Shown one piece after another: positions 1,775 through 53,538 of a DNA stretch of 60,000 nucleotides; positions within the stretch are counted from its first letter, which is position 1; each line of letters opens with the position of its first letter. The stretch spans positions 30,630,001-30,690,000 of the forward strand of contig NC_086108.1 in the NCBI RefSeq assembly GCF_963921235.1. The letters run 5' to 3'. Position numbers and translations under genes: made by a program. Under the pieces are notes generated by a model, which did no database searches, was not told the origin of the DNA, and was given only the letters and a program-made list of their open reading frames with translations. This DNA comes from Mobula hypostoma. Lineage: Eukaryota.

Positions 1775-2254
1775 CTGCCGTCAGTACTGATGAAGGGTCT
1801 TGGCCTGAAACATTGACTGTACTCCTTTCCATAGATGCTTCGTGGCCTGCTGAGTTCCTCCTGCATTTTCAGTGTGTTGCATGTCTTCTGCCATGATGAG
1901 GCCACACTAAGGGTGGAGGAGCAGCACTTCATATTCCTCTGAGGTAGCCTCCAACCTGATTGCATGAACATCGATCTCTCCTGGTGAACTTTTTTTTTCT
2001 TTTTTTCTATTTCCCTCCACCGTCCCTCTTCTTCTATTCCCCAATATGGCCTCTTATCTCTTCTCTTTACCTGCCTTTCATCTCTGTCTGGTACCCCTCC
2101 TCCTTCCCTCTCTCCCATAGTGTACACTCCTCTTCTATAAGATTCCTTCTTCTTTGGCTCTTTACCTTTCCCACCAAACTGGTTTCACCTGTCACCTTGT
2201 AGCTTGTCCTTCTTCTTCTCCTCTCCCCTCCTTTTTATTCTGACATCTTGCCCC
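1775..2254 (+). mobile_element. Penelope-like element 3' part (GIY-YIG C-terminus and pseudo-LTR), split by the LTR element
   Basis: Encodes ...EATLRVEEQHFIFL*GSLQPDCMNID, typical of a PLE endonuclease C-terminus; preceded by CTGATGAAGGGTC..GAAAC motif; resumes at 12494. Confidence 0.7.
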
Positions 2255-2940
2255 TGTAACCCCCTTGGCCACCCTTAGGGTCGCTCGGCTCGCTGTTGTC
2301 TAGGGAAACAGCCCTCGGCCCCGCCAAACTGGGTAACTAGTTTGTGTGGATGCTATGTGATGTACCCCACCCCACCCAAATAACAGACAATACACCAGAT
2401 ACGATTAAATGATTTACAGTTTATAGATATTACTGGAACTACATAATTAATAGAGAATAAAATATAAAAGGGAAATAAAAGGCACCACACTTATCAAAGT
2501 TCAATCTCTTCATGCACAAACAGTTGGAGCTCGGGACCCTTCTTCTTCACCTTGCAACCCCTCGGACCACCTCGACTGTCTGTCTGGGACCAACAACGAT
2601 GGTCGACCAGACGCTCCACACAAGTCCGTCTCCATCTCTCCTCCTCGTTCGGGGTCCGACCCCATTAGCGGACTCACAGCACCTGGTCCATTCTCTGTCT
2701 CTCTCTCTCCCGCCTTCTCCCCAAAACCCCGCGCATACAATATCTTACAGATACACCAAAAACATAACCAGCGCAATTGGTTCGTAACATCTTCTCATCA
2801 GTAATGTGATTCAACAAACTGCTAGCGGGAAGGACTTTCTCAGCGTTTAACATAACAAAGAAGCATTCCCAAGTATAACATAACAAAGAAGCCATTTTAA
2901 TTAGCCTACACAGTAACATAAGAGACGAAACCCCGTTACA
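2255..2940 (-). repeat. 3' LTR
   Basis: TGTAAC...GTTACA; aligns end to end with 11796-12493 at roughly 90% identity by eye. Confidence 0.95.
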
Positions 2941-2953
2941 CTCTCCCCCCACC
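2941..2953 (-). promoter_or_regulatory. Polypurine tract
   Basis: Minus strand reads GGTGGGGGGAGAG directly before the 3' LTR. Confidence 0.85.
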
Positions 2954-3208
2954 AAATAAAGTCATGCCCTCAGGACTTCTAAATAACTCGCCGACCAGTC
3001 CTGCAGACACACAACACACAGATACACAGGTACACACAGTGGCAGTGTTCCCCAAACAGTGGACCTTACGCCCGTCCCATGGGCACTACATAGGCCAACC
3101 TATCTGGGAGCTTCTTAACCCTCCGAGACCTCTGTACCCCCTCACCTAAACCCAAAAGGTTCAGACACTACTAGGGATACCTTGGGCCTGCTTGCCAACT
3201 GCTCTTTC

Positions 3209-3436
3209 TCAGGCCACCATTACAGCTCGAAGCCCCCTGTCCTGTATCCGGGGCCCCGCTGCTTTTCCTTCCTGATCCTGCCGTAACTCAGACTGCCCAC
3301 AGCTAGCCCTCCCCACGACACCTGACTCAGTGGGAGAAGGGCCAAAGGTCTCTTCCTCAATCACGGGGAAGTTAGCGAAAGGCAGCATGTACCACATGTG
3401 CAGCACATCATCCTTCAAATCCGTATTCATCCTCAT
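3209..3436 (-). pseudogene. Probable Gypsy pol C-terminal (post-integrase) tail
   Basis: [32 protein letters not shown]... is not myosin-like and lies just upstream of the PPT; assignment by position and recalled similarity. Confidence 0.5.
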
Positions 3437-3439
3437 TCC

Positions 3440-4265
3440 CTCGATCGGTAGCCGCTGTTTAAGATTCTCCAAACTGAAACATTTAGCCAGGGCTACCCCT
3501 ACAGCCTCATGCAGTCGAGACGTCAGTTTCTTCAGGGACTCCTTCAACTCTCGCCACAGCCTCAGCAATTCTGAATCAGGGTTCTTGGCCATCTCCATCT
3601 GGGACACAGTTACCCCACCAGCTTCTTCCACCCTGACCTGAAAAGCAGCAGTTAAAGGATGGTCAGCCTCCAGATTTTTTTTTCCTGATGATGTCTTCCA
3701 GGTCAACTTTCAGTTTTTCTACTTCATTTAAACTCGCAATAGTCATCTTCAGGTTCCTTTCAAGCATTCGCCTCCCTTTTCCGAGATCTGTCCTCCATTT
3801 CTTCATCTCCTCGGGAGTGTAGTCAAACTCCCCTCCCTGGGCTCCCGGTTTTCTGTTGGCTGTAGTCAGAACACTTCCTTGATCTTCCCCAACTTGTAAG
3901 TCTTCCAAACTTTTCTGAATCGACGTCATGAGTTTCTGCTGATCCCTTTGAAGGTGGGTCATTGTTTCTTCTCGCTGGATTAATTCATCAGTACATGACC
4001 GCAGTGTCGGCTCAGAATTCCATTGCTCCTTCTCCACGTTGACGAGCGTGAATTCCAAGTCTGCAATTGTCGTCCCACAAGCACGGCACTCAGTCTCTGG
4101 CCAGCATTTCTGAGCACTCAGTTCAGCGGTGCAAATCCCCTCTCTCCCCTGTGTCTCATTCAGATTGACGACCTGGGTTTCTATCCCCAGGTCCACCACC
4201 GTCTGTTCCAACACCGGGAAGTTCAACTGGTATGTCGGGTCATTTTTCTCACATTGCACCAAACT
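3440..4265 (-). pseudogene. Captured, intronless, internally deleted sarcomeric myosin heavy-chain rod fragment (MYH16-like) inside the LTR element
   Basis: Colinear motifs [107 protein letters not shown] match the class-II myosin S2/LMM order (QEKND; AELTAKK..EDEC; IDDLELTLAKVEKE; LDDLQAEED; RLEEAGG; KKLAQRLQEA..AKCSSLEKTK.RL). Confidence 0.88.
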
Positions 4266-4289
4266 CCTCTGGCCAAAAACTCCTCCATA

Positions 4290-4639
4290 TTTGAGACTTC
4301 ACTTCGGTCGCCCGGGCTCAGCCACTCGCCTCGTCTCATAGTCCCCCCAAGCTCTAGGTGGTCATCCACTTACACCAAAACTCCACACACCTTCACTTCC
4401 CCCATGGTCTTCCTTGTGCCCCGCGGGAAGGATGCAGGGGCTCCAGATATGCCCTTGGGCATCTTTTCAGATCGGAAGAATCCTAGGGAACTAATAACGG
4501 CCGTTGTCGGCTCGACAGCCACACTCCTCGGGATCTGGCAACATCCACCCCTCAGATCCAGCACATTAAACCATGTCGCATAATCCGCACACACGCTGCC
4601 TCCATCTTCAACGGCACCAGGGTCCAGTTGCCGTGACCT
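4290..4639 (-). pseudogene. Gypsy reverse transcriptase remnant (internally deleted)
   Basis: [47 protein letters not shown] matches Gypsy RT WFSVLDLRSGYYQIP..TAFICPLGFFQFERMPQGISGAPATF..YLDD. Confidence 0.9.
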
Positions 4640-5005
4640 TTTATGGCGGCTGGCAATCACCTTTAAGGTGCATTACCTCCACCTTCTGGGTCAGGATATC
4701 TAATTCTATATATTTATATTTGTATCAAATTCTATAAAAAAATACCTGTATTCTTAAGGAACTGCACTATATATTTAAAGAAATAATCCTGTGAAACCTT
4801 CTGCCAAATGTTAATGTTAAATCGTATTTTATTCTGCGATAACTTCAAAATCAACCACCCCGTCTCTTGATTATATCTTGTGCATCTCACCAGTGCATGC
4901 TCAATGTTTCTTGTTGATTATAATAGTCACACCTCCCGTTATTGTGTTTCTTCATTAAAACAATGTACTCTTTAACCCTCTGTGCCCAAACCTCAGTCTC
5001 TTGAT
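4640..5005 (-). mobile_element. I-group (Nimb-like) LINE 3' end
   Basis: RLRFGHRGLKSTLF..CDY..ET.EHAL.RC..QFLKNTGIFYRI* followed by GGTGGAGGTAATGCACC..GCCAGCCGCCATAAAA 3' terminus. Confidence 0.6.
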
Positions 5006-5009
5006 GCTG

Positions 5010-5900
5010 TTCCCTGTGAACCTCTTGAGATTGATGCATGGTGAATATTTTGTCCACTCTCTGTCTCTTCAGGATAGACAGAATCCAGACTATGAATCAG
5101 AGGCCACTGGGTGGAAGTGGTTGAGGAGAACCTTGGTGATTACATTCTCTGTGGAGGACAGCAGTTAACTTTGTCTCTGTTCTTGAAAATATCATGTCCT
5201 TAAGATTCCCAGAATCAGGAGAAAAGCTGAGAATTTATATAGTACCTAAAGTTGCTCCCTATGAAGTTTCATGCTGTCACCAGGAATACCCATCCTCTCC
5301 CGAGACAGTTTTTGTTTCTCCTTTCGGGTAGATGTGGCTGTGAAACTGGAATAGATTATTTACCATGCGATAAATTCAAGGACACTCATGTCAAGTACAA
5401 AGTCACAGCTGAGGTGTGCTTGGAAGTATTCCTTTCCTTTCAGCAGATGCCAACTGCCTCTCTGTAAGTTCACCTCCATTCTAAGAAGTGAGTGGGGTAA
5501 GGTCTTGACTGTTTGGGCCATAGTTGGCCTTGACTGTGCTAAAGAATCAACGCATGTCAGACCATTGCTGGGCCTCCTGAACTCTTTCTGCCTACCATCT
5601 GTTCTTTAGGTCATAGGTTTTCTGTTGTACCTGAGCCATCAGGTACCTGTGGAGCTGTTTCTAGTCCCTCGAGGCTCACTGGAGTTTCTAATGGAAGAAC
5701 GCCTGTGTTTGCTGTCAATTAGTTCCAGATCTCCAGGTCATTGGCCACAAACCCGTCCTGGTGTTCTCTGGTAGAATTTCTCCTTGCCAGGGTATTTGCA
5801 AACTTTTGAGTATCCTGCACAATAAAGGCATACTGTATGTGCTGATGATGGTAGTATGTTGATTCCTTGATGGGGTGAGCTAGATGGTCACAAGATATTT
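5010..5900 (-). mobile_element. Old degraded RTE-clade LINE fragment
   Basis: Remnants such as ..SRNQHTTIISTY.. and QVQQKTYDLKNRW..FFSTVKANYGP with many disruptions. Confidence 0.6.
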
Positions 5901-6131
5901 ATTTATCTAATTCAAGTAGTTGCTTATTCTCGATGGCAAAACTTATCCTAAGAAGATTATATTGCTCTTCTAGAGGAGGTGGTGCTTCTTATCTTGTCTT
6001 TTTTTACTTAGCTGTCTCTTACTCATCATATCTTGTACAGGTTGATGATGGCAAAGAAAAAATGAGTAATTGAAACAAATCTAGTATTCATGTATACACT
6101 GCAGGCATATTCTTTATCAACACATATACAA

Positions 6132-6520
6132 TACTGCCCGTTACACTGCTGGCGTTTCGGGCAGTAATGAACGTCCTCCATCTCTGGCGGTGTTCGGGGC
6201 TTCCTTCACCACGTCAGTAGTTTCCTGTCTGTTTTCACAACTGTCAGCCATGCAAGTGCTGGGTGGAGACTTCCGAACACCATCGCACTTAGATGTAGAA
6301 GGATTCTTCATTGCTATTTCCATAACAGTTTTGTTAGCCCTGTGCTGAACCCCCAACCCTGACGGATCAGTGGACCACTGGCTTCTGCCCTTTGACCTGT
6401 TTGGCCGACCCTACCAAGAGCCAAAAGGTAAAGCCCTGACTCCAGCCCACATACTGTGGCTCTCTGGCTCATTGAGGCCTGTAAGCCTCTGAGCCACAAC
6501 AAGGTTGTTCTCCTGTTGGA
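6132..6520 (-). mobile_element. Short non-autonomous retroelement (RTE-related ends)
   Basis: GC-richer block; minus strand ends ...CCAGCAGTGTAACGGGCAGTA, resembling RTE-type 3' termini. Confidence 0.45.
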
Positions 6521-7084
6521 GATTAGCAGCCCACTCATCTTTAAAATTTAGAGCTGGTAGCAGGCCACATGATCACAATGACAACGTACAAATTCCACAC
6601 ATATGCTGCTCCAGCACCAGAGATCATGATGGAACTTGGGTCTTTGGAACTTCATGGTTACAGCTCTTCTAGCTCTGCCTCTACCACCTCTGTATCAAAG
6701 TTCAGATCTGAACAAAGTTCCCAAGCTATGATAGTGGAACGGAATTCCGAGGAGAAGTTGTCTGTGTATAATTTCTTTAAATATGAGGTAGTTATTGCAC
6801 ATTGGTTGCCACATAAATTTGACTGAGTTACGTCTTGAGCTAGTGGAAAATGTTTATAAGATAGTGGAGAGTAGGCTCTGCTGCACGAACATGTCACCTG
6901 CCAGCACACAGATACTGAAACCTACACACGCACTGTGCACATACCCTACACAAAGATCGTTCAAAGTTCAAAGATCAAGCTGAATTGTCATTCAACCATG
7001 CATGAATACCCATGTGTACAGCCAAACTAGTACTCACATAGACATACAGGCACACACGCACACACACACACTCTCATACACATA

Positions 7085-7912
7085 AGCACATCACTGGAAA
7101 ACCCTCCCATTGAGCGCATTTACACGAATCTTACATATCATAAGAAAGCAGCATTTATCATCAGATATCCCCACCCACCAGGTCATGGTCTTCTCATTGC
7201 TGCCATCAGGTGGAATGTACAAGAGTCTCAGAACTCGCACTTCCAGGATTAAGAACAGTGACTACCCCTCAACCATCAGGCTCTTGAATAAAAGAGGATA
7301 ACTACACTCACTTGCCCCATCATTGAAATGTTTCTACAACCAATGATCTCACTTTAAGGACTCTTTTTTTTTCTTGTTATCTCATGTTCTTGTTATTTAT
7401 TACTACTTACTTTTATTTCCATTTGCAAAGTTTGTTGTCTTCTGCACTCTAGTTGATCTTTCATTGCTCCTGTTATGGTTGCCATTTTATAGATTTGTTG
7501 AGTATGCCCAAAAGAAAATTAATCTCAGGGATGCGTATGGTGACATATATGTACCAGATCCCCAGCTATGGATAAGTAGCCCCGTTGCCTTGTGGGCAGC
7601 CTTGGGAGAGATGAAGGCTACAAGAGTAAACCGAAACAGCACGTCTGGAGTGGAATCCCTAAAGGGGCCGGACGTCATTGAACATCCTTCTGGTAGCTCC
7701 TGTAGTCAAACATATTGCTTCATAAGCTTTCCTTTGGACTCCACTGGTGAGGCTGAGAGGGGGATCTTGTCAACTGGGCATCTCAGGATCTCCATACCTT
7801 CCCCCAGGTTTGTGGTGATGTTGGTCAGCACCCATTGTCCTTCGAGACAGATGGATGCTCACCACCACCACCATTTTGATAATAAAATTTACTTTGAACT
7901 TTTGAACTTTGA
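7085..7912 (+). mobile_element. Rex1/Babar LINE 3' end, interrupted by a short insertion
   Basis: FSLLPSGGMYKSLRTRTSRIKNSDYPSTIRLLN C-terminus; AATAAA..(TTTGAAC)n tail. Confidence 0.8.
7555..7873 (+). mobile_element. SINE-like non-autonomous insertion with (CAC)n tail
   Basis: Interrupts the Rex1 3'UTR between GTAC and TTTGATAATAAA; ends CACCACCACCACCAT. Confidence 0.55.
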
Positions 7913-8196
7913 ACACACATATGCATGCATCCTCAAACCCTGTCATTTCCTTCTCTTACACCCTGTTCTTTGTCCACTTGTCCCTCTCCTTCCTCTCTCC
8001 ACTGAGCATGCTCCACCACTGTTTCCTTTGGCACTCTGTTCTCTTCTCCCCTCACATACAGTATCTCCATGACTAAGCCTTTGGATTCCGTTCTCCAAAG
8101 TCTGGTCTGTAGTCTTGTATTAACTTCTGTTTGGTAATACTAGATGCTAAATACATACAAGTTGCATATCTCTCTAAATTATGGAATAATTTGTAC

Positions 8197-8585
8197 TTAT
8201 TAAGGGATTGGTTAATAAGATTAATAAGATTATTAAGGGATTGGACACACTAGAGACAGAAAACATGTTCCCGATGTTGGGGGAGTCCAGAACCAGAGGC
8301 CACAATTTGAGAATAAGGGGTAGGCCATTTAGAACGGAGTTGAGGAAAAGCTTTTTCACCCAGAGAGTTGTGGATCTGTGGAATGCTCTGCCTCAGAAGG
8401 CAGTGGAGGCCAATTCTCTGGACGCTTTCAAGAGAGAGTTAGATAGAGCTCTTAAAGATAGTGGAGTCAAGGGATTTGGGGAGAAGGCAGGAACGGGGTA
8501 CTGATTGTGGATGATCAGCCATGATCGCAGAATGGCGGTGCTGGCTCAAAGGGCCGAATGGCCTACTCCTGCACCTATTGTCTAT
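8197..8585 (+). mobile_element. 5'-truncated CR1 3' end
   Basis: KIIKGLD..FPMLGESRTRGHNLRI..FFTQRVVDLWNALP; CR1 3'UTR ending CACCTATTGTCTAT. Confidence 0.92.
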
Positions 8586-8591
8586 TGACCT

Positions 8592-9030
8592 CTCTCTCAC
8601 TGAGGTGTCTTCAGCGGTCAACTCCCCTCCTTCATGGTAGTTAAGAGCATCTACTAAGAGGGTCTCACCCTCAGCTACTTTCCCCAAGCCATACCACCGC
8701 TGGGTCTCGTTTAAATTCGGTACTGGCTCAAGGCTACTACACACGTCCTCAGAAGCAACTCGACACGCTGGGTGCCCAGACAATGCCCCCATGAACTTCA
8801 GGATCATTAACCAATCATCGTCTTCTGGATAACTACTGGAACTGGTACCCAAAATCTCCGGTGTCCTTGCGGTTGTCAAGGGTAAATGCTTCAGACACCG
8901 GTTGTAAAACAAACTGTACAACAACTTGACCTGCTCCCCGGGGTCGAGGATGGCTTTAGCATCACTTCCTTCTATCCATAATAACACCCTGGGGCGTGGT
9001 CTATCTAAGCCTTCAGGAATAGAGTCTTTT
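8592..9030 (-). pseudogene. Gypsy aspartic protease remnant and linker
   Basis: [48 protein letters not shown]; the expected LDTG active site reads LDPG. Confidence 0.8.
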
Positions 9031-11113
9031 CATAGAAACGTAGAAACATAGAAAATAGGTGCAGGAGTAGGCCATTCGGCCCTTCGAGCCTGCACCGCCA
9101 TTTATTATGATCATGGCTGATCATCCAACTCAGAACCCAGCCTTCCCTCCATACCCCCTGACCCCTGTAGCCACAAGGGCCATATCTAACTTCCTTTTAA
9201 ACATAGCTAATGAACTGGCCTCAACAGTTTGCTGTGGCAGAGAATTCCACAGATTCACCACTCTCTGTGTGAAGAAGTTTTTCCTAATCTCGGTCCTAAA
9301 AGGCTTCCCCTCTATCCTCAAACTGTGACCCCTCGTTCTGGACCTCCCCAACATCGGGAACAATCTTCCCGCATCTAGCCTGTCCAATCCCTTTAGGATC
9401 TTATACGTTTCAATCAGATCCCCCCTCAATCTTCTAAATTCCAACAAGTACAAGCCCAGTTCATCCAGTCTTTCTTCATATGAAAGACCTGCCATCCCAG
9501 GAATCAATCTGGTGAACCTTCTATGTACTCCCTCTATGGCAAAGATGTCTTTCCTCAGATTAGGGGACCAAAACTGCACACAATACTCCAGGTGTGGTCT
9601 CACCAAGGCCTTGTACAACTGCAGTAGTACCTCCCTGCTCCTGTACTCGAATCCTCTCGCTATAAATGCCAGCATACCGTTCGCCTTTTTCACCGCCTGC
9701 TGTACCTGCATGCCCACTTTCAATGACTGGTGTATAATGACACCCAGGTCTCGTTGCACCTCCCCTTTTCCTAATCGGCCACCATTCAGATAATAATCTG
9801 TTTTCCTATTTTTGCCACCAAAGTGGATAACTTCACATTTATCCACATTAAATTGCATCTGCCATGAGTTTGCCCACTCACCCAACCTATCCAAGTCACC
9901 CTGCATCCTCTTAGCATCCTCCTCACTGCTAACACTGCCACCCAGCTTCGTGTCATCCGCAAACTTGGAGATGCTGCATTTAATTCCCTCATCCAAGTCA
10001 TTAATATATATTGTAAACAACTGGGGTCCCAGCACTGAGCCTTGCGGTACCCCACTGGTCACCGCCTGCCATTCTGAAAAGGTCCCGTTTATTCCCACTC
10101 TTTGCTTCCTGTCTGCTAACCAATTCTCCACCCACACCAATACCTTACCCCCAATACCGTGTGCTTTAAGTTTGCACACTAATCTCCTGTGTGGGACCTT
10201 GTCAAAAGCCTTTTGAAAATCCAAATATACCACATCCACTGGTTCTCCCCTATCCACTCTACTAGTTACATCCTCAAAAAATTCTATGAGATTCGTCAGA
10301 CATGATTTTCCTTTCACAAATCCATGCTGACTTTGTCTGATCATTTCACCGCTTTCCAAATGTGCTGTTATCACATCCTTGAAAACTGACTCCAGCAGTT
10401 TCCCCACCACCGACGTTAGGCTAACCGGCCTATAATTCCCCGGTTTCTCTCTCCCTCCTTTTTTAAAAAGTGGGGTTACATTAGCCACCCTCCAATCCTC
10501 AGGAACTAGTCCAGAATCTAACGAGTTTTGAAAAATTATCACTAATGCATCCACTATTTCTTGGGCTACTTCCCTAAGCACTCTGGGATGCAGACCATCT
10601 GGCCCTGGGGATTTATCTGCCTTCAATCCCTTCAATTTACCTAACACCACTTCCCTACTAACATGTATTTCGCTCAGTTCCTCCATCTCACTGGACCCTC
10701 TGTCCCTTACTATTTCTGGAAGATTATTTATGTCCTCCTTAGTGAAGACAGAACCAAAGTAATTATTCAATTGGTCTGCCATGTCCTTGCTCCCCATAAT
10801 CAATTCACCTGTTTCTGTTTGCAGGGGACCTACATTTGTCTTTATCAGTCTTTTCCTTTTTACATATCTATAAAAGCTTTTACAGTCCGTTTTTATGTTC
10901 TCTGCCAGTTTTCTCTCATAATCTTTTTTCCCCTTCCTAACTAAGCTCTTTGTCCTCCTCTGCTGAACTCTGAATTTCTCCCAGTCCTCAGGTGAGCCAC
11001 TTTCTCTGGCTAATTTGTATGCTACTTCTTTGGAATTGATACTATCCCTAATTTCTCCTGTCAGCCACGGGTGCACTACCTTCCTTGATTTATTCTTTTG
11101 CCAAACTGGGATG
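9031..11113 (-). mobile_element. Young 5'-truncated CR1 LINE with open RT frame, inserted between gag and protease
   Basis: SPGPDG, NYRPVSLT, QHGF, YLDFQKAFD, GVPQGS, FADD; (TTTCTATG)n tail; near-identical to 26161-29889. Confidence 0.96.
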
Positions 11114-11114
11114 T

Positions 11115-11650
11115 TTCCTTTCGGAAGTTCCTTGGTACATTGCTGGGAACGTGCTTCCCCAGAGACCCCAAGCCGTTCCCCCACTGGGCCTCCACAAGTT
11201 TCCTGACACCTCTCTGATCAGCTGAACAACTGAAGGAGGGGCTGATCCCCTGAAATGATCCCCCGGCACTGCAAGAAATTTAGCTGCCCTCCTAGCCAGA
11301 GAAGACACACTGAAAATTTTCCCCCCTCTTTCAAATAACTGACAGCTGTCACTACGGTGTAAGTGAACCTGACAGCTCTAATACCATCACCAGCCCGCCT
11401 ACTTAAACTTTAAACCAATCCCTGTTGCTCTCCCTCAACTGAGCACTGCCACGCATCTAACAACTGAGAGATCCGCTCCGCCCATGTTTCGCATGCCTCC
11501 GCCTCTCTTGGGGTGGACACTATCCCAAATGCCAGGCAGAGCCTGCCAGAGCTAGAACATTTATTCGCACACTCTACCTCCAAATCAGACCACCCTTTCC
11601 TCTCTCTCCCAACAGCATGGACAGCCCCAAGTGCCACCTCCAACTCGTCA
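11115..11650 (-). pseudogene. Gypsy gag remnant (PNMA-like capsid region)
   Basis: RLCLAFGIVSTPREAEACETWAERISQLLDAWQCS..QQGLV resembles PNMA/Gypsy gag RLRLFSG..PTP..EE.YE.W.EQ.SQLL.EWQCS..QRLV. Confidence 0.75.
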
Positions 11651-11774
11651 ATGCCAGCCTGAACTCAAACAAAGACCTCACCCACCACGCATGCAGCAAT
11701 AATGAGCAAATAACCCACAGAGACACACATTACAGATTTAAACAGGGCACCCACACAGCATACCAGTAGACCCA

Positions 11775-11792
11775 ATCCCAGACGATACCCCA
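11775..11792 (-). promoter_or_regulatory. tRNA-Pro-like primer binding site
   Basis: TGGGGTATCGTCTGGGAT, 15/18 identical to TGGGGGCTCGTCCGGGAT, 3 nt downstream of the 5' LTR. Confidence 0.8.
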
Positions 11793-11795
11793 CAG

Positions 11796-12493
11796 TGTAG
11801 CCCCCCTGGCCACCCTCAGGGTCGCTTGGCTCGCTGTCGTCCAGGGAAACAGCACTCGGCCCTGCCAATCTGGCTGATTAGTTTGTGTGGATGCTGTGTG
11901 ATGTACCCCACCCCGCCCAGATAACAGACAATACACCAGATACGATTAAATGATTTGCAGTTTATAGATATTACTGGAACTATATAATTAATAGAGAATA
12001 AAATATAAAAGGAAAATAAAAGGCACCACACTTATCAAAGTTCAATCTCTTCGTGCACAAACAGTTGGGCTCGGGACCCTTCTTCTTCACCCTGCGACCC
12101 CTCAGACCACCTCGACCGGCCGCCTGGGACCAACAACGATGGTCGACCAGACGCTCCACATGAGTCCATCTCCGTCTCCCCTCCTCGCCGAACGTCCTGC
12201 TCGGGGTCCGACCCCGTTAGTGGACTCACAGCACCTGGTCCATTCTCTGTCTCTCTCTCCCGCCTTCTCCCCAAAACCCCGCGCATACAATATCTTACAG
12301 ATACACCAAAAACATAACAACTATCGCAATTGGTTCATAACATCTTCTTATCAGTAACGTGATTCAACAAACTGCTAGGGGGAGGGACTTTCTCAGTGTT
12401 TAACATAACAAAGAAGCAATTCCAAGTATAACATAACGAAGAAGCTATTTTAATTAGCCTACACAGTAATATAAGAGACAAAACCCCCTTACA
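11796..12493 (-). repeat. 5' LTR
   Basis: TGTAGC...CTTACA, direct repeat of 2255-2940. Confidence 0.95.
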
Positions 12494-12630
12494 CCCCTTA
12501 CTTTCCAATCTTGATGAAGTGTCTCAGCCCGAACTGTTGACTGTTCATTCACTGTTGCTGCTTCCTGTCCTGCTGAGTTCCTCCAGCATTTTGTGGGTGT
12601 TGTTCTGGATCTCCAGCATCCGCAGAATTG
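12494..12630 (+). mobile_element. Continuation of the Penelope-like 3' end
   Basis: TTGATGAAGTGTCTCAGCCCGAAC...CTGCTGAGTTCCTCCAGCATTTTG parallels 1785-1880. Confidence 0.7.
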
Positions 12631-21699: not shown

Positions 21700-24600
21700 T
21701 TTCTCAAAGGAAGATTTATTGGAAGCAGGAGAAGAGATTGTTGGAACTGTGATAAAGATCATTTCATCAGCTTTAGCTATGAATGAGATACTGGAAGATT
21801 GCAGTGTAGATAATGGTTTCCCCATTTTTGGAAAGAGAGGCGGGAATAAGCCAAGAAACCATAAGCTAGAGAGCTCTCCATCTGTAGAAGAGAAGATATT
21901 GGAAAAAAAATCTTACTGATGGGATTTATGATCAGCTGAAAAGGCTGATTTGCGGAGTCAGCATGGCATTACGCATGACAAATCCTTCCTCCTGTTTTCT
22001 TTTGAGGAGCTTACTAAGGAGATTAATGAAGACAAAGCAGTGGATGTGGACTTCAGCAAAGCATGGTAGACTGGACTAGAAAGGTTAGAATCAAAGTTGA
22101 TTAGAAACATAGAAACATAGAAAGTAGGTGCAGGAGTAGTCCATTCAACACTTCGAGCCTGCACCACCATTCATAGAAACATAGAAACATAGAAAATAGG
22201 TGCAGGAGTAGGCCATTCGGCCCTTCGAGACTGCACCGCCATTTATTATGATCATGGCTGATCATCCAACTCAGAACCCCGCCCCAGCCTTCCCTCCATA
22301 CCCCCTGACCCCCGTAGCCACAAGGGCCATATCTAACTCCCTCTTAAACATAGCCAATGAACTGGCCTCAACAGTTTGCTGTGGCAGAGAATTCCACAGA
22401 TTCACCACTCTCTGTGTGAAGAACTTTTTCCTAATCTCGGTCTTAAAAGGCTTCCCCTCTATCCTCAAACTGTGACCCCTCGTTCTGGACTTCCCCAACA
22501 TCAGGAACAATCTTCCTGCATCTAGCCTGTCCAATCCCTTCAGGATCTTATACGTTTCAATCAGATCCCCCCTCAATCTTCTAAATTTCAACGAGTACAA
22601 CCCCAGTTCATCCAGTCTTTCTTCATATGAAAGTCCTGCCATCCCAGGAATCAATCTGGTGAACCTTCTTTGTACTCCCTCTATGGCAAGGATGTCTTTC
22701 CTCAGATTAGGGGACCAAAACTGCACACAATACTCCAGGTGTGGTCTCACCAAGGCCTTGTACAACTGCAGTAGTACCTCCCTGCTCCTGTACTCAAATC
22801 CTCTTGCTATGAATGCCAGCATACCATTCGCCTTTTTCACCGCCTGCTGTATCTGCATGCCCACTTTCAATGACTGGTGTATAATGACACCCAAGTCTTG
22901 TTGCACCTCCCCTTTTCCTAATCGGCCACCATTCAGATAATAATCTGTTTTCCTATTTTTGCCACCAAAGTGGATAGCTTCACATTTATCCACATTAAAT
23001 TGCATCTGCCATGAGTTTGCCCACTCTCCCAACCTATCCAAGTCACCCTGCATCCTCTTAGCATCCTCCTCACTGCTAACACTGCCACCCAGCTTCGTGT
23101 CATCCGCAAACTTGGAGATGCTGCATTTAATTCCCTCATCCAAGTCATTAATATATATTATAAACAACTGGGGTCCCAGCACTGAGCCTTGCGGTACCCC
23201 ACTGGTCACCGCCTGCCATTCTGAAAAGGTCCCGTTTATTCCCACTCTTTGCTTCCTGTCTGCTAACCAATTCTCCACCCACACCAATACCATACCCCCA
23301 ATACCATGTGCTTTAAGTTTGCACACTAATCTCCTGTGTGGGACCTTGTCAAAAGCCTTTTGAAAATCCAAATATACCACATCCACTGGTTCTCCCCTAT
23401 CCACTCTACTAGTTACATCCTCAAAAAATTCTATGAGATTCGTCAGACATGATTTTCCTTTCACAAATCCATGCTGACTTTGTCCGATGATTTCACCGCT
23501 TTCCAAATGTGCTGTTATCACATCTTTGATAACTGACTCTGGCATTTTCCCCACCACCGATGTTAGGCTAACCGGTCCATAATTCCCCGGTTTCTCTCTC
23601 CCTCCTTTTTTAAAAAGTGGGGTTACATTAGCCACCCTCCAATCCTCAGGAACTAGTCCAGAATCTAAAGAGTTTTGAAAAATTATCACTAATGCATCCA
23701 CTATTTCTTGGGCTACTTCCTTAAGCACTCTGGGAAGCAGACCATCTGGCCCTGGGGATTTATCTGCCTTTAATCCCTTCAATTTACCTAACACCACTTC
23801 CCTACTAACATGTATTTCCCTGAGTTCCTCCATCTCACTAGACCCTCGGTCCTCTACTATTTCCAGAAGATTATTTATGTCCTCCTTAGTGAAGACAAAA
23901 CCAAAGTAGTTATTCAATTGGTCTGCCATGTCCTTGTTCTCCATGATCAATTCACCTGTTTCTGACTGTAAGGGACCTACTTTTTTCTTAACCAATCTTT
24001 TTCTTTTCACATATCTATAAAAGCTTTTACAGTCAGTTTTTATGTTCCCTGCCAGTTTTCTCTCATAATCCTTTTTCCCTTTCCTAATTAAGCCCTTTGT
24101 CTTCCTCTGCTGGACTCTGAATTTCTCCCAGTCCTCAGGTGAGCCACTTTTTCTGCCTAATTTGGAAAGTTTGATCCAAAATTGGCTTGATGATTGGAGA
24201 TAGAGATAATTGTAGAGGGTAGTTATTCTGACCAAAGTCTGTTACCAGTTGTGCACAATAAGGATTGTTGCTTTGTTCACAATATATATAAACAACTTGG
24301 ATGAAAATACATGTGGTCAGATAAATAAGTTGGCTGATGATACAAAGAATTGGTGGAGTGCAGATTGCAAAGATATAGAGGGACATAGATCAGCTGGAAA
24401 ACTGGGTGGTAACGTGTGAGATGGAATTTAATCCAGACAAATGTGAGGTAGGAAATGTTGGGTCATCTAATACTGGCCAAGCATATACAGTAAATGGGCA
24501 GGGACACTAGAAACATTGATGCACAGAGGGATTTTGTGGTGCAGGTTTGTAATTCTGAAAATGGGCAGATAGGGATGTGAAGAAAGTGCTTAGTTTGTTT

Positions 24601-26160: not shown

Positions 26161-29100
26161 GTTTGAGTACTGTTGGGGGGGACAGCTTACCCAGGGGACG
26201 CGACAGTGGCCGTGCCTCCGGCACAGAGTCTGGCCCTGTAGCTCAGAAGGGTAGGGCAAGGAAGAGGAGGGCAGTTGTGATAGGGGACTCGATAGTAAGG
26301 GGGTCAGGTAGGCGATTCTGTGGACGCAGTCCAGAGACCCAGATGGTAGTTTGCCTCCCTGGTGCCAGGGTCCGGGATATTTCTGATCGTGTCCAAGATA
26401 TCCTGAAGTGGGAGGGTGAGGAGCCAGAGGTCGTGGTACATATAGGTACCAATGACATAGGTAGGAAAAGGGATGAGGTCCTGAAAGAAGAATATAGGGA
26501 GCTAGGAAGGGAGTTGAGAAAAAGGACCGCAAAGGTAGTAATCTCGGGATTACTGCCTGTGCCACGCGATAGTGAGAGTAGGAATGTGATGAGGTGGAGG
26601 ATAAATGCGTGGTTGAGGGATTGGAGCAGGGGGCAGGGATTCAAGTTTTTGGATCATTGGGACCTCTTTTGGCGCAGGCGTGACCTGTACAAAAAGGACG
26701 GGTTCCTAGGGGAACCAATATCCTGGCAGGGAGATTAGCGGGGGCTACTGAGGTGACTTTAAACTAGAATGGTTGGGGGGTGGGAATCAAATTAAAGAGG
26801 CTAGGCATGAGGAGGTTAGTTCACAACAGAGGGATGGGAACCAGTGCAGAGAGACAGAGGGGTGTAAAGTGAGCGTAGAAGCAAAAAGTACAAAGGAGAA
26901 AAGTAAAAGTGGCAGACCGACAAATCCAGAGCAAGCATTAAAAAGGGCCACTTTTCAACATAATTGTACAAGGGCTAAGAGAGTTGTAAAAGAGCGCCTG
27001 AAGGTTTTATGTGTCAATGCAAGGAGCATTCGTAATAAGGTGGATGAATTGAAAGTGCAGATTGCTATTAATGATTATGATATAGTTGGGATCACAGAGA
27101 CATGGCTCCAGGGTGACCAGGGATGGGAGCTCAACGTTCAGGGATATTCAATATTCAGGAGGGATAGACATGAAGGAAGGGGAGGTGGGGTGGCGTTGCT
27201 GGTTAGAGAAGAGATTAACGCAATAGAAAGGAAGGACATAAGCCGGGAAGATGTGGAATCAATATGGGTAGAGCTGCGTAACACTAAGGGGCAGAAGACG
27301 CTGGTGGGAGTTGTGTACAGGCCACCTAACAGTAGTAGTGAGGTCGGAGATGGTATTAAACAGGAAATTAGAAATGTGTGCAATAAAGGAACAGCAGTTA
27401 TAATGGGTGACTTCAATCTACATGTAGACTGGGTGAACCAAATTGGTAAAGGTGCTGAGGAAGAGGATTTCTTGGAATGTATGCGGGATGGTTTTTTGAA
27501 CCAACATGTCGAGGAACCAACTAGAGAGCAGGTTATTCTGGACTGGGTTTTGAGCAATGAGGAAGAGTTAATTAGCGATCTTGTCGTGAGAGGCCCCTTG
27601 GGTAAGAGTGACCATAATATGGTGGAATTCTTCATTAATATGGAGAGTGACATAGTTAATTCAGAAACAAAGGTTCTGAACTTAAAGAGGGGTAACTTTG
27701 AAGGTATGAGACGTGAATTAGCTAAGATAGACTGGCAAATGACACTTAAAGGATTGACGGTGGATATGCAATGGCAAGCATTTAAAGGTTGCATGGATGA
27801 ACTACAACAATTGTTCATCCCAGTTTGGCAAAAGAATAAATCAAGGAAGGTAGTGCACCCGTGGCTGACAAGAGAAATTAGGGATAGTATCAATTCCAAA
27901 GAAGTAGCATACAAATTAGCCAGAGAAAGTGGCTCACCTGAGGAATGGGAGAAATTCAGAGTTCAGCAGAGGAGGACAAAGGGCTTAATTAGGAAGGGGA
28001 AAAAAGATTATGAGAGAAAACTGGCAGAGAACATAAAAACGGACTGTAAAAGCTTTTATAGATATGTAAAAAGGAAAAGACTGGTAAAGACAAATGTAGG
28101 TCCCCTGCAGACAGAAACAGGTGAATTGATTATGGGGAGCAAGGACATGGCAGACCAATTGAATAATTACTTTGGTTCTGTCTTCACTAATAATCTTCCA
28201 GAAATAGTAAGGGACAGAGGGTCCAGTGAGATGGAGGAACTGAGTGAAATACATGTTAGTAGGGAAATGGTGTTGGGTAAATTGAAGGGATTGAAGGCAG
28301 ATAAATCCCCAGAGCCAGATGGTCTGCATCCTAGAGTGCTTAAGGAAGTAGCCCAAGAAATAGTGGATGCATTAGTGATAATTTTTCAAAACTCGTTAGA
28401 TTCTGGACTAGTTCCTGAGGATTGGAGGGTGGCTAATGTAACCCCACTTTTTAAAAAAGGAGGGAGAGGGAAACCGGGGAATTATAGACCGGTTAGCCTA
28501 ACGTCGGTGGTGGGGAAACTGCTGGAGTCAGTTATCAAGGATGTGATAACAGCACATTTGGAAAGCGGTGAAATCATCGGACAAAGTCAGCATGGATTTG
28601 TGAAAGGAAAATCATGTCTGACGAACCTCATAGAATTTTTTGAGGATGTAACTAGTAGAGTGGATAGGGGAGAACCAGTGGATGTGGTATATTTGGATTT
28701 TCAAAAGGCTTTTGACAAGGTCCCACACAGGAGATTAGTGTGCAAACTTAAAGCACACGGTATTGGGGGTAAGGTATTGGTGTGGGTGGAGAATTGGTTA
28801 GCAGACAGGAAGCAAAGAGTGGGAATAAACGGGACCTTTTCAGAATGGCAGGCGGTGACTAGTGGGGTACCACAAGGCTCAGTGCTGGGACCCCAGTTGT
28901 TTACAATATATATTAATGACTTGGATGAGGGAATTAAATGCAGCATCTCCAAGTTTGCGGATGACACGAAACTGGGTGGCAGTGTTAGCAGTGAGGAGGA
29001 TGCTAAGAGGATGCAGGGTGACTTGGATAGGTTGGGTGAGTGGGCAAACTCATGGCAGATGCAATTTAATGTGGATAAATGTGAAGTTATCCACTTTGGT

Positions 29101-29889
29101 GGCAAAAATAGGAAAACAGATTATTATCTGAATGGTGGCCGATTAGGAAAAGGAGAGGTGCAACGAGACCTGGGTGTCATTATACACCAGTCATTGAAAG
29201 TGGGCATGCAGGTACAGCAGGCGGTGAAAAAGGCGAATGGTATGCTGGCATTCATAGCAAGAGGATTTGAGTACAGGAGCAGGGAGGTACTACTGCAGTT
29301 GTACAAGGCCTTGGTGAGACCACACCTGGAGTATTGTGTGCAGTTTTGGTCCCCTAATCTGAGGAAAGACATCTTTGCCATAGAGGGAGTACAAAGAAGG
29401 TTCACCAGATTGATTCCTGGGATGGCAGGACTTTCATATGAAGAAAGACTGGATGAACTGGGCTTGTACTCGTTGAAATTTAGAAGATTGAGGGGGGATC
29501 TGATTGAAACGTATAAGATCCTAAAGGGATTGGACAGGCTAGATGCGGGAAGATTGTTCCCGATGTTGGGGAAGTCCAGAACGAGGGGTCACAGTTTGAG
29601 GATAGAGGGGAAGCCTTTTAGGACCGAGATTAGGAAAAACTTCTTCACACAGAGAGTGGTGAATCTGTGGAATTCTCTGCCACAGCAAACTATTGAGGCC
29701 AGTTCATTGGCTATGTTTAAGAGGGAGTTAGATATGGCCCTTGTGGCTACGGGGGTCAGGGGGTATGGAGGGAAGGCTGGGGCGGGGTTCTGATTTGGAT
29801 GATCAGCCATGATCATAATAAATGGCGGTGCAGGCACGAAGGGCCGAATGGCCTACTCCTGCACCTATTTTCTATGTTTCTATGTTTCT
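26161..29889 (+). mobile_element. Young CR1 LINE, truncated within ORF1
   Basis: ORF1 SGNH esterase motifs (VIGDS, PGA, HIGTND); complete ORF2; (TTTCTATG)n tail; AAAT duplication at 26157-26160 and 29890-29893 within the Tc1 transposase. Confidence 0.96.
26773..29793 (+). CDS. CR1 ORF2: AP endonuclease plus reverse transcriptase (open, 1006 codons)
   Basis: CVNARS, GITETWL, VYRPP, MGDFN, SDH; NYRPVSLT, QHGF, DFQKAFD, GVPQGS, FADD; true start codon uncertain. Confidence 0.93.
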   Translation: MGGGNQIKEARHEEVSSQQRDGNQCRETEGCKVSVEAKSTKEKSKSGRPTNPEQALKRATFQHNCTRAKRVVKERLKVLCVNARSIRNKVDELKVQIAINDYDIVGITETWLQGDQGWELNVQGYSIFRRDRHEGRGGGVALLVREEINAIERKDISREDVESIWVELRNTKGQKTLVGVVYRPPNSSSEVGDGIKQEIRNVCNKGTAVIMGDFNLHVDWVNQIGKGAEEEDFLECMRDGFLNQHVEEPTREQVILDWVLSNEEELISDLVVRGPLGKSDHNMVEFFINMESDIVNSETKVLNLKRGNFEGMRRELAKIDWQMTLKGLTVDMQWQAFKGCMDELQQLFIPVWQKNKSRKVVHPWLTREIRDSINSKEVAYKLARESGSPEEWEKFRVQQRRTKGLIRKGKKDYERKLAENIKTDCKSFYRYVKRKRLVKTNVGPLQTETGELIMGSKDMADQLNNYFGSVFTNNLPEIVRDRGSSEMEELSEIHVSREMVLGKLKGLKADKSPEPDGLHPRVLKEVAQEIVDALVIIFQNSLDSGLVPEDWRVANVTPLFKKGGRGKPGNYRPVSLTSVVGKLLESVIKDVITAHLESGEIIGQSQHGFVKGKSCLTNLIEFFEDVTSRVDRGEPVDVVYLDFQKAFDKVPHRRLVCKLKAHGIGGKVLVWVENWLADRKQRVGINGTFSEWQAVTSGVPQGSVLGPQLFTIYINDLDEGIKCSISKFADDTKLGGSVSSEEDAKRMQGDLDRLGEWANSWQMQFNVDKCEVIHFGGKNRKTDYYLNGGRLGKGEVQRDLGVIIHQSLKVGMQVQQAVKKANGMLAFIARGFEYRSREVLLQLYKALVRPHLEYCVQFWSPNLRKDIFAIEGVQRRFTRLIPGMAGLSYEERLDELGLYSLKFRRLRGDLIETYKILKGLDRLDAGRLFPMLGKSRTRGHSLRIEGKPFRTEIRKNFFTQRVVNLWNSLPQQTIEASSLAMFKRELDMALVATGVRGYGGKAGAGF

Positions 29890-30400
29890 AAATCATGATG
29901 CTCCTTCCACCATGCTTCACGGTTAGGATGAGGTTTTGGTGTTGGTGTGCAGTGACCTTTTTCCTCCAAATATAGCAATATGCATCTGCCAAAATGTTCA
30001 ACTTTTGTTTCCGTGTCCACAGAACATCATCCCAGAAGCATTGTAGAACATCCAGGTGGTCTTTTGCAAACTTGAGACATGCAGCGTCTCAAGTGGTCTT
30101 TTTGGCGAATTCTGGTGTCCTCCATGGTGTCCTTCCATGAATACCATTATATTTCAATGTTTTTCAGACACTTTAGCAAGTTCTAGAGATTTCTGCAGGT
30201 CTTTTTGCTGTTACTCCTCGGATCTTTTTCACCTTCTTCATTATTGTACATTGTGCTCTTGGTGTGATCTTTGCAGGATGCCCACCCCTAGGGAGAGTAG
30301 CAATGGCACTGAGTTTCCTCCATTTGTAAACAATTTCTCTTACTGTGGACTGATAAATACTCAGATCTTTTAAGTGCTTTTGTAGCTTTTTCCAGCTTCA

Positions 30401-52900: not shown

Positions 52901-53538
52901 AAGCGGTCCCGACCCTCCAAGCAGACCATTGCCTTTGTCAGAGCTGGGGAGCAGCCAATACCCGCTAAAAGAGCATCTGCAGGCATTCTGACCTCTGCAA
53001 GGGACTGGCAGCTGTTGGTGGACCTCAATGGGCAGCTGAAGTTCCCCAACCATATCGCAGCCATCACCCTGCGACCAGACATTAGTGTCTGAGTCTACTA
53101 AACAAGTGGTGCTGCTGGAGCTGACAGTCCCATGAGAAGATAGCTTGGAGGAGGCCTTTGAAAGGAAGCTCTCCAAGTACGCAGGACTGGTCAGCAACTG
53201 TCAGCAGGCTGGATGGAGAGCGATGTGTCTCCTAGTGGAGGTTGGTTGTAGGGGATTCGTAGCCCGTTCTTTAGTTAGAGCCTTCAGCATTTTGGGCATC
53301 GAGGGAGAGAGGAAGAGGAGAGCCATCCGCAGTACCACCGATGTGGCAGGGAGGGCCTCAAGATGGCTGTGGCTCAAAAGAGGGGAGCCATGGAGTCATA
53401 AGTAGCTAGCCATCTGGACACAAGCTGGGGTCTGATCAGCCCTGGCTGGGTCACCTGGAGGAGGTTGTATGATGTTGAAAGACCAAGAACATCACTGAAG
53501 ATGTGTCCAGAAGCATCAATAGATGTATGTACACAGCT
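49917..53538 (+). mobile_element. Hero-type non-LTR retrotransposon (RT plus restriction-like endonuclease), near full length, disrupted
   Basis: N-terminal CACGKICKNNRGLKIHQARMKC zinc finger; SSAPGP; VQKGG; WLDLANAYGSIPH; FMDD; CPLC..HILSGC; RHD; RPD..ELTVP..K.SKY..VEVGCRG; several stops and frameshifts. Confidence 0.9.

Follow-up and report, generated by a model that had tools for sequence, protein, structure and literature searches.

The protease-RT-myosin-tail mosaic of the Mobula hypostoma sequence analysed here (a stretch of 60,000 nt, referred to below as the window) lies inside a non-autonomous Ty3/gypsy LTR element at 2255-12493 on the minus strand. With slightly better than even confidence, we interpret the sequence as a decayed member of a non-autonomous Ty3/gypsy LTR family of myliobatiform rays, in which translatability, and not the protein, was selected in cis. 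A first-pass annotation had proposed that a long ORF was selectively kept; the continuous ORFs of relatives and a deficit of stop codons uphold this, although a single ORF from gag to tail is seen in Hypanus only.

Structure of the element

The element has the two direct LTRs, TG...CA ends and short target-site duplication of Ty3/gypsy elements. Its 5' LTR is at 11796..12493 and its 3' LTR at 2255..2940, both on the minus strand, and a 4-base duplication flanks them (2251..2254 and 12494-12497). The K2P distance between the LTRs is 0.077 (633 matches and 49 mismatches, 41 of them transitions), and the copy measures 4204 nt when its inserts are removed. A PBS-like stretch next to the 5' LTR presumably resembles tRNA-Pro, and no tRNA gene was found by ARAGORN in the 60,000-nt window; a polypurine tract is directly visible ahead of the 3' LTR.

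All coding remnants are on the minus strand, and they are described here from the 5' LTR onwards. The shortened, PNMA-type gag remnant (11116..11799) matches the Pfam PNMA family with E 0.0011, under the curated cut-off; it contains stops at 11667, 11412 and 11220, and a 25-codon gap relative to Hypanus that keeps the frame. A young, 5'-truncated CR1 LINE (9031..11113, minus strand, 98% identical to a copy at 26752-29890) separates it from the protease, and the length of this insert leaves the gag side and the protease side in one phase. The protease and linker remnant (8586..9030) is stop-free, has an altered catalytic motif, and is 51 codons shorter, in frame, than the Hypanus ORF P0058. Next to it is a secondary insert of 3952 nt (4640..8591), of which only the end at 8224-8585 is a CR1 3' end. 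The palm region of a Ty3/gypsy RT follows (4300..4639), and then a short pol-derived stretch (4191..4299), common to P0006. This stretch is a possible RNase H remnant, as we take it to resemble the RNase H motif; Pfam and PDB searches with it returned no match. Beyond the myosin-derived region, an element-derived tail (3209..3444) continues in the unchanged frame to a terminal stop at 3209-3211, 269 nt ahead of the 3' LTR. The tail probably comes from the pol C-terminus; neither an autonomous reference for it nor an autonomous partner of the element was found among proteins of up to 2000 aa.

The Pfam RVT_1 match is weak in the window copy and reaches E 1e-6 in the relative P0016; the best solved-structure match of the relatives is the Ty3 RT (E 3e-10 for P0058, and 6e-14), which places the RT in the Ty3 type. 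The observed domain order is gag (PNMA, weak), protease-like and RT. The RT is partial and the relatives' proteins have no integrase or RNase H family match, as is typical of an element without complete enzymes of its own. On Ty3 Pol, a 7-sequence profile gave no second domain at the strict 1e-9 cut-off, and a metagenome scan yielded 61 pattern matches, none of them confirmed.

The captured myosin

The myosin portion is real: in rod piece 1 (3678..4190), 171 gap-free codons match MYH7 912-1082 with E 1e-16. Pieces 2-4 (3445..3677) correspond to host residues ~1103-1115, 1158-1186 and 1395-1434. Host myosins carry introns in the corresponding stretch, and a real myosin gene or exon array at this site was rejected, the sequence being intron-free and having LTRs on both sides. 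An intron-free host segment of this kind, replacing part of the internal ORF, is a feature of LTR-mediated retrocopies. MYH16 is a candidate donor, as the source annotation uses the names myosin-16-like or MYH16; the closest host protein found is Narcine P0014, named myosin-6-like (49 of 70 residues identical to P0015).

In-frame joins

The first-pass annotation had inferred selection from the number of deletions that keep the frame. Several of its readings held. The protease/linker enters the RT in frame once the secondary insert is removed: its net length of 3952 nt, bordered by a 6-base target duplication (4634-4639 and 8586-8591), has the right remainder modulo 3, and the same join is uninterrupted in three Mobula birostris proteins. 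The RT is compressed in frame, being 26 codons shorter than P0058, and the myosin jumps (~1115>1158, 1186>1395 and a 3-codon gap) are all in frame by comparison with the host. Frameshifts had been ascribed to homopolymers, and this is true near 3675, within the myosin rod region, where the A-run has shifted the frame by one base. A slip in the G-run at ~4345 was rejected: the frame shift near 4346-4352 in the RT remnant reflects about 10 bases missing relative to P0001, P0003 and P0004 (tblastn overlap), hence an out-of-frame deletion, and one seemingly private to the window copy. Within the RT remnant, on the way to the myosin, there are two stops (4372 and 4301), where one had been reported.

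The assumption that random deletions keep the frame one time in three had to be replaced by a value of ~0.4-0.9 that allows for microhomology. Microhomology pairs were in frame at a rate of 0.37-0.48 in an intact CR1 ORF2 (word lengths 3-8) and of 0.43-0.94 in simulated myosin-rod coding DNA. Seven joins could be checked against relatives or host myosin; six are in frame in the window copy, and the seventh has a one-base shift there and is in frame in four relatives. These seven referenced joins gave P 0.016-0.08 under the microhomology null, as opposed to 0.0005 before. The join count by itself is borderline at the upper null values, and because this null is high the deletion-length argument is weaker than first put.

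Continuous ORFs in relatives

The family is visible in the annotated proteins of four rays. In Mobula copies, linker, RT, myosin and tail form one ORF of up to 450 aa (432, 313 and 450 aa at independent loci of M. birostris), and in Hypanus a single ORF of 729 aa runs from gag to tail at three loci. A deletion-made fused ORF, like that of IAP 1Δ1, is therefore present in Hypanus at its full 729 aa. In the window-copy lineage it can be followed no further upstream than the protease region, and the three full M. birostris models likewise begin inside that region. In the Hypanus ORF, some 40 codons at the end of gag are read in frames other than that of the window copy before the register is restored, so the encoded sequence was not kept there. 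The window-copy stop at 11220 falls in a stretch apparently read out of its original frame; if this stop is fixed in the window-copy lineage, the rule of one ORF with a stop near the 3' end fails for that lineage. Of 23 distinct joins across 24 proteins of the family, 17 recur in two or more proteins and 6 occur in a single one; since any annotated protein is necessarily an ORF, these joins are not usable as a test.

Missing stops and amino-acid change

Absent stops appear to be stronger evidence for long-ORF selection than the joins. In the window copy the main frame contains 5 stops in 818 codons and its two alternative frames contain 54 and 53, a difference beyond chance. Comparison of the Hypanus subfamily with that of M. 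birostris (net distance 0.54, 12 pairs, ~327 columns) revealed no stop where 9.0-10.7 are expected under neutrality (P 2e-5 to 1e-4). The window copy, which was not chosen for having an ORF, carries 2 stops within 613 codons. With half of the distance to Hypanus placed on its lineage, 8.7-10.3 would be expected (P 0.002-0.008); post-insertion decay alone would account for 2.3-2.9. The stop test is built on proteins and not DNA and presupposes a position for the root.

These data bear on a scenario without any selection, in which template switches at microhomologies within codon-periodic DNA produced the in-frame joins, the long ORFs being merely the open copies that annotation displays. The high in-frame rates given above are in its favour, as are the ascertainment of the proteins and the position of the 1186>1395 join between two similar host stretches. 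It leaves the missing point stops unexplained, and the unascertained window copy has just the stops that its age predicts. Among the 15 of 45 deletion joints listed for genomic contigs, moreover, one is at high depth and measures 120 nt, while three of the four low-depth events, presumably single copies, are not multiples of 3. We regard this scenario as unlikely.

Amino-acid differences were scored separately for two parts of the ORF. In the pol-derived part, differences have a mean BLOSUM62 score of -0.30 to -0.89 (10 pairs), which resembles neutral change (-0.39 to -0.63), unlike the CR1 ORF2 controls (-0.03, 0.03, 0.23). The myosin part, compared with host P0014, scores -0.06 to +0.43, where neutral change gives the lower values of -0.21 to -0.41; this comparison also takes in substitutions selected on the branch of the host itself. 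Compared between elements (15 pairs) it scores -0.64 to +0.32 and is compatible with neutrality as well as with the host controls (-0.16 to 0.01), so that drift of the myosin part is not clear. The 32 best-supported differences (378 further rows) fall 7, 13 and 12 times on first, second and third codon positions; this looks neutral, but most are private to the window copy and therefore uninformative on the copying lineage. Among the 12 of 34 small indels listed, 10 are in the LTR, in a ranking that favours the deeper LTR.

Proposed mechanism and alternatives

In the explanation we prefer, an ancestor would have exchanged most of its RNase H and integrase for a segment of spliced myosin heavy-chain mRNA, probably by template switching in reverse transcription, and the subfamilies would have shrunk afterwards through many deletions. 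Copying would be done by an autonomous helper. Selection in the lineages that went on copying would act against stops and frameshifts and largely tolerate amino-acid changes, the window copy having decayed neutrally after its insertion. The benefit to a copy might be that ribosomes traverse most of its RNA and terminate near the 3' LTR, so that the RNA escapes nonsense-mediated decay or enters helper particles in cis. We infer such a cis or RNA-stability mechanism from the deficit of stops, which suggests that translation, and not the protein product, may help such elements spread.

An alternative gives the fusion protein a function of its own, whether in cis or in trans. For instance, the gag remnant and the myosin coiled coil would make the protein form oligomers, or assemble together with helper Gag, and bring its own RNA into particles, the dead pol part being a loosely constrained spacer. 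The myosin segment is indeed kept by all subfamilies whose sequence extends to it, its differences from host myosin are milder than neutral (subject to the change on the host branch), and the effect of IAP 1Δ1 is put down to a cis-acting gag-pol fusion protein in the relevant sections of two reviews (PMC6466679, PMC7411935). Prolines give a mixed picture: Hypanus segments have 0-1 and six of seven myosin segments are proline-free, but the window copy has 6 in 235 myosin-derived residues and P0004 5 in 172, against none in the host. The deleted rod parts also differ by subfamily (gaps of 3, 4, 9, 19, 24, 40 and ~144 codons, with no multiple of seven among them), and gag is missing at the start of several subfamily ORFs. 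A working protein is thus doubtful in our view. A more specific version, in which the myosin coiled coil is a cis-acting oligomerising tether on a dead gag-pol remnant with which the family out-competes its helper, is more doubtful still; were it true, a selfish element of stingrays and devil rays would have turned a fragment of a host muscle gene into a functional component. As to the two reasons that the first-pass annotation gave for a kept ORF, the RNA-level or cis reason fits the pol part better than a functional pol-coiled-coil protein does, and either fits the myosin part.

Host domestication of one or more copies, with the ORF under host selection, is very improbable: two ORFs are annotated as host-gene isoforms (P0004 as GSTT2, P0049 as TMEM192), but the ORF occurs at many unrelated loci with copies differing by ~6% in Hypanus and ~12% in M. 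birostris, and the window copy is broken and split by two inserts.

Relation to known elements

IAP is a betaretrovirus-like ERV, and the primary paper on its mouse variant 1Δ1 is reportedly that of Saito et al. in 2008. Like the ray family, 1Δ1 is a non-autonomous LTR element with a deletion-fused single ORF; according to the review sections that cover it, an internal deletion produced one fused gag-pol ORF that aids retrotransposition in cis and requires a helper, and the variant carries a single deletion of 1.9 kb and no host-derived cargo (PMC6466679, PMC7411935). The ray family differs in belonging to Ty3/gypsy, in its many nested deletions, several subfamilies, four species and captured myosin, and in that the cis effect is here deduced from sequence only. 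Maize Bs1, as portrayed in the consulted parts of two papers, is likewise an LTR element with transduced host segments in a hybrid ORF, partly outside the parental frame; it has 1-5 copies and three donor genes and is reported to be transcribed and translated (PMC13317346, PMC5131818), unlike the ray family with its one donor gene and many copies, known so far as genomic and predicted protein sequence. In the LTR-mediated retrocopies of animals, as presented in the pertinent passages of Tan et al. 2016 (PMC5131818), a stretch of the internal ORF between the LTRs has also given way to a host mRNA segment; a microsimilarity-guided template switch (in the rays, a probable one) and secondary retroposition are further likenesses. 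Loss-of-function mutations are given there for 14 of 21 older non-fly retrocopies. In the ray lineages, by contrast, ~0.5 replacements per site have accumulated with the frame kept. An analogy, and not a relative, is offered by the defective interfering RNAs of mouse hepatitis coronavirus: these are helper-dependent deleted genomes said to need translation but not the particular sequence encoded (van der Most et al. 1995), though from an RNA virus in cell culture and without a DNA fossil record.

Literature searches returned no publication on the ray element family, and the main text of a Mobula genome preprint (10.64898/2026.10.27.761883) contains neither 'myh' nor 'myosin'; its supplements could bear on the matter. 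The case for a need for translation in the spread of non-autonomous LTR elements rests on few examples, chiefly IAP 1Δ1 of mouse. The ray family offers a natural record with many copies in multiple species, in which counts of shared and private variants could separate selection against stops from selection on amino acids. It also indicates that a fragment captured from a host gene can remain readable for long without a host function, as raw material for new genes. The myosin-like and other host-gene names on ray gene models are explained by the same family, these models being in fact element ORFs.

Structure of the element and the captured myosin

The decayed Ty3/gypsy element was delimited by a 5' LTR (11796-12493) and a 3' LTR (2255-2940), both on the minus strand with TG...CA ends; a polypurine tract is present, and the target site is duplicated over 4 bases. 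LTR-LTR divergence (K2P 0.077) corresponds to about 0.038 substitutions per site per LTR since insertion. It took up two later inserts, a young CR1 (9031-11113) and a block of 3952 nt (4640-8591) with a 6-base duplication at its ends; subtracting both leaves 4204 nt. Their lengths modulo 3 fit, and the flanks of both stay in phase; for the CR1, whose target duplication is ambiguous, phase is kept under both readings. The first-pass annotation was thus right that protease/linker and RT share a frame once the block at 4640-8591 is taken out.

The element reads, in order, a gag remnant (PNMA-type; Pfam E 0.0011, under the cut-off), a protease/linker remnant, a partial RT (among solved structures, the best match of its relatives was the Ty3 RT), a short stretch, several pieces of the myosin rod, and finally a tail derived from the element itself, whose stop lies 269 nt ahead of the 3' LTR. 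The short stretch may be RNase H-like; Pfam and PDB searches with it returned no match. The protease catalytic motif is changed in both the window copy and Hypanus. The first myosin piece corresponds to MYH7 912-1082, with 171 codons aligned gap-free, and the later ones to about 1103-1115, 1158-1186 and 1395-1434 on full-length host myosin. Host sarcomeric myosin genes carry introns across the captured stretch, so the donor of the gap-free piece was an mRNA. The host protein closest to it is XP_069785580.1 of Narcine, named myosin-6-like, which lacks 29 rod residues present in other myosins. Several relatives are labelled MYH16-like by the source annotation.

In-frame joins

The many in-frame joins had previously been read, against a one-in-three expectation, as selection for one long ORF. 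A direct reference, in relatives or in host myosin, is available for seven joins within 3209-9030. Two are gaps against the Hypanus ORF, of 51 codons in the protease region and of 26 codons in the RT, the latter bearing out the RT's in-frame compression; one is the join from pol to myosin, and the other four are gaps within the myosin. The window copy, taken unrepaired, keeps six of them in frame. At the seventh, one of the myosin jumps, a one-base shift falls in an A-run; 4 of 24 family proteins have this join in frame. Three further joins, lacking a reference, are probably in frame. A shift near 4345 ascribed to homopolymer slippage proved to be a deletion of about 10 bases near 4346-4352, and a second stop, at 4372, had been overlooked in the RT remnant, where only one had been counted.

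The one-in-three null was itself too low. Identical short-word pairs were spaced by a multiple of three at frequencies of 0.37-0.48 in intact CR1 ORF2 (word lengths 3-8) and 0.43-0.94 in simulated myosin-rod DNA, and of 0.21-0.33 in a non-coding LTR region. Seven in-frame joins have a P of 0.016 to 0.08 under such microhomology nulls, as opposed to 0.0005 under one-in-three.

Family members were found among annotated proteins of M. birostris, M. hypostoma, Hypanus sabinus and Hemitrygon akajei. In M. birostris, a single frame runs from the protease region through RT to myosin at three loci (313, 432 and 450 aa); three Hypanus loci carry a 729-aa ORF spanning gag to tail, and further loci encode 632-691 aa. 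RT and myosin losses differ between subfamilies, and of the distinct joins seen over 24 proteins, 17 recur in two or more and 6 are confined to one. These counts were excluded as a test: an annotated protein is an ORF by definition, and some of the gaps may be predicted introns. Unselected genomic contigs served as a check (four runs; best 15 of 45 joint rows). Among the rows listed, 10, representing five events, were joints in the coding part. The sole high-depth joint was a 120-nt skip (depth 4336 in run X1 and 871 in run X4), identical to the gap of 40 codons that five Mobula proteins share; the four low-depth joints had net lengths of 277, 60, 37 and 101, with one of the four in frame.

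Missing stop codons and the gag border

In twelve comparisons of a Hypanus with an M. birostris protein, 47% of the 276-339 aligned columns differed, giving a net subfamily distance of 0.54 once copy-to-copy differences (6% and 12%) were subtracted. Neutral change of this extent, at the same codon make-up, would have produced 9.0-10.7 stops between the subfamilies; not one was observed (P 2e-5 to 1e-4). The window copy, picked without regard to ORF, has 2 stops in 613 codons, compared to 8.7-10.3 expected if half of its distance to Hypanus falls on its own lineage (P 0.002-0.008). As its age alone predicts 2.3-2.9, the breaks it carries are consistent with post-insertion decay, and its source lineage was nearly stop-free. 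One possible explanation of the joins invokes no selection at all, only microhomology and ascertainment; the high microhomology nulls and the selection of family proteins as ORFs favor it, whereas the missing stops argue against it, and we consider it unlikely.

At the gag end, the Hypanus ORF matches the window copy over about 40 codons in two other frames and then again in the main frame. This region also has, at 11204, a heptamer of a type known from -1 frameshift sites. We infer that gag and pol were formerly linked by programmed frameshifting, and that the Hypanus fusion arose by out-of-frame reading of the gag end, the ORF being kept and the sequence not. The window copy has a stop at 11220 in this region, and the three longer M. 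birostris models begin at points downstream from it, which leaves Hypanus as the one case in which an ORF from gag to tail is established. The proposal that a long ORF was kept in the ancestry is supported mainly by the continuous ORFs of relatives and by the missing stops, with its gag-to-tail extent limited to Hypanus.

Amino-acid constraint

Constraint was measured as the mean BLOSUM62 score of differing residues. Ten between-subfamily pairs scored -0.30 to -0.89 in the pol-derived parts, at the neutral level (-0.39 to -0.63; selected CR1 ORF2 lineages, -0.03, 0.03 and 0.23). The pol part is hence open yet unconstrained, which speaks against purging of stops through exchange with a working helper. 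The myosin part scored -0.64 to +0.32 in 15 element pairs (neutral, -0.21 to -0.41; host controls, -0.16 to 0.01). Against the Narcine host myosin it scored -0.06 to +0.43, with proline absent in 6 of 7 segments; this comparison, which also contains the host's own selected branch, leans towards mild constraint. A functional fusion protein whose useful part is the coiled coil would account for such constraint, and the Hypanus ORF P0058 has no proline in 117 myosin-derived residues; the 6 prolines among 235 such residues of the window copy and the 5 in 172 of the family protein XP_072103657.1 count against it, and it too appears improbable.

Interpretation

The feature is real, and its earlier description is corrected in part. 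Our preferred explanation, which we hold to be somewhat favored, is that copying lineages were selected for translation over most of their length. Full-length retroviral RNA is open to nonsense-mediated decay when unshielded (PMC2925335). A deleted element may lose this shielding, and an ORF ending close to the 3' LTR would, by inference, escape decay; a cis effect on packaging would leave an identical sequence signature. Host domestication is very improbable.

In its working, the closest known system is mouse IAP 1Δ1, a deleted, non-autonomous element reported to have a fused gag-pol ORF that helps retrotransposition in cis (PMC6466679, PMC7411935). In cargo, the ray family is similar to maize Bs1 and to the LTR-mediated retrocopies described by Tan et al. 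2016 (PMC13317346, PMC5131818). It belongs to none of these three, and our literature search turned up no publication on this ray family. Capture of a host gene by an LTR element is of a known kind; more unusual is a frame preserved over subfamilies and species with few signs of protein constraint on the pol part.

Annotation of family loci and neighboring repeats

Two element ORFs bear host names, XP_072103657.1 (glutathione S-transferase theta-2) and XP_059820834.1 (transmembrane protein 192), which may reflect chimeric transcripts at these loci or naming errors. At one Hypanus locus the annotation gives two proteins (P0050 and P0057), one of 356 aa upstream and one of 249 aa downstream; the locus resembles a copy that broke once it had inserted.

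The window holds many CR1 LINEs, and the nearest annotated proteins are ray proteins. Only the final 360 bases of the 3952-nt insert are a CR1 3' end, most of the remainder being unmatched within the window; nested insertions or transduced genomic DNA may account for it. Broken ORFs at 50469-53092 and 55332-56069 are putative RTs of other non-LTR element types. The CR1 copies at 9031-11113, 22174-24164 and 26752-29890 are 97-98% identical, and the 1013-codon ORF2 of the last is open, indicating that this subfamily was recently active.
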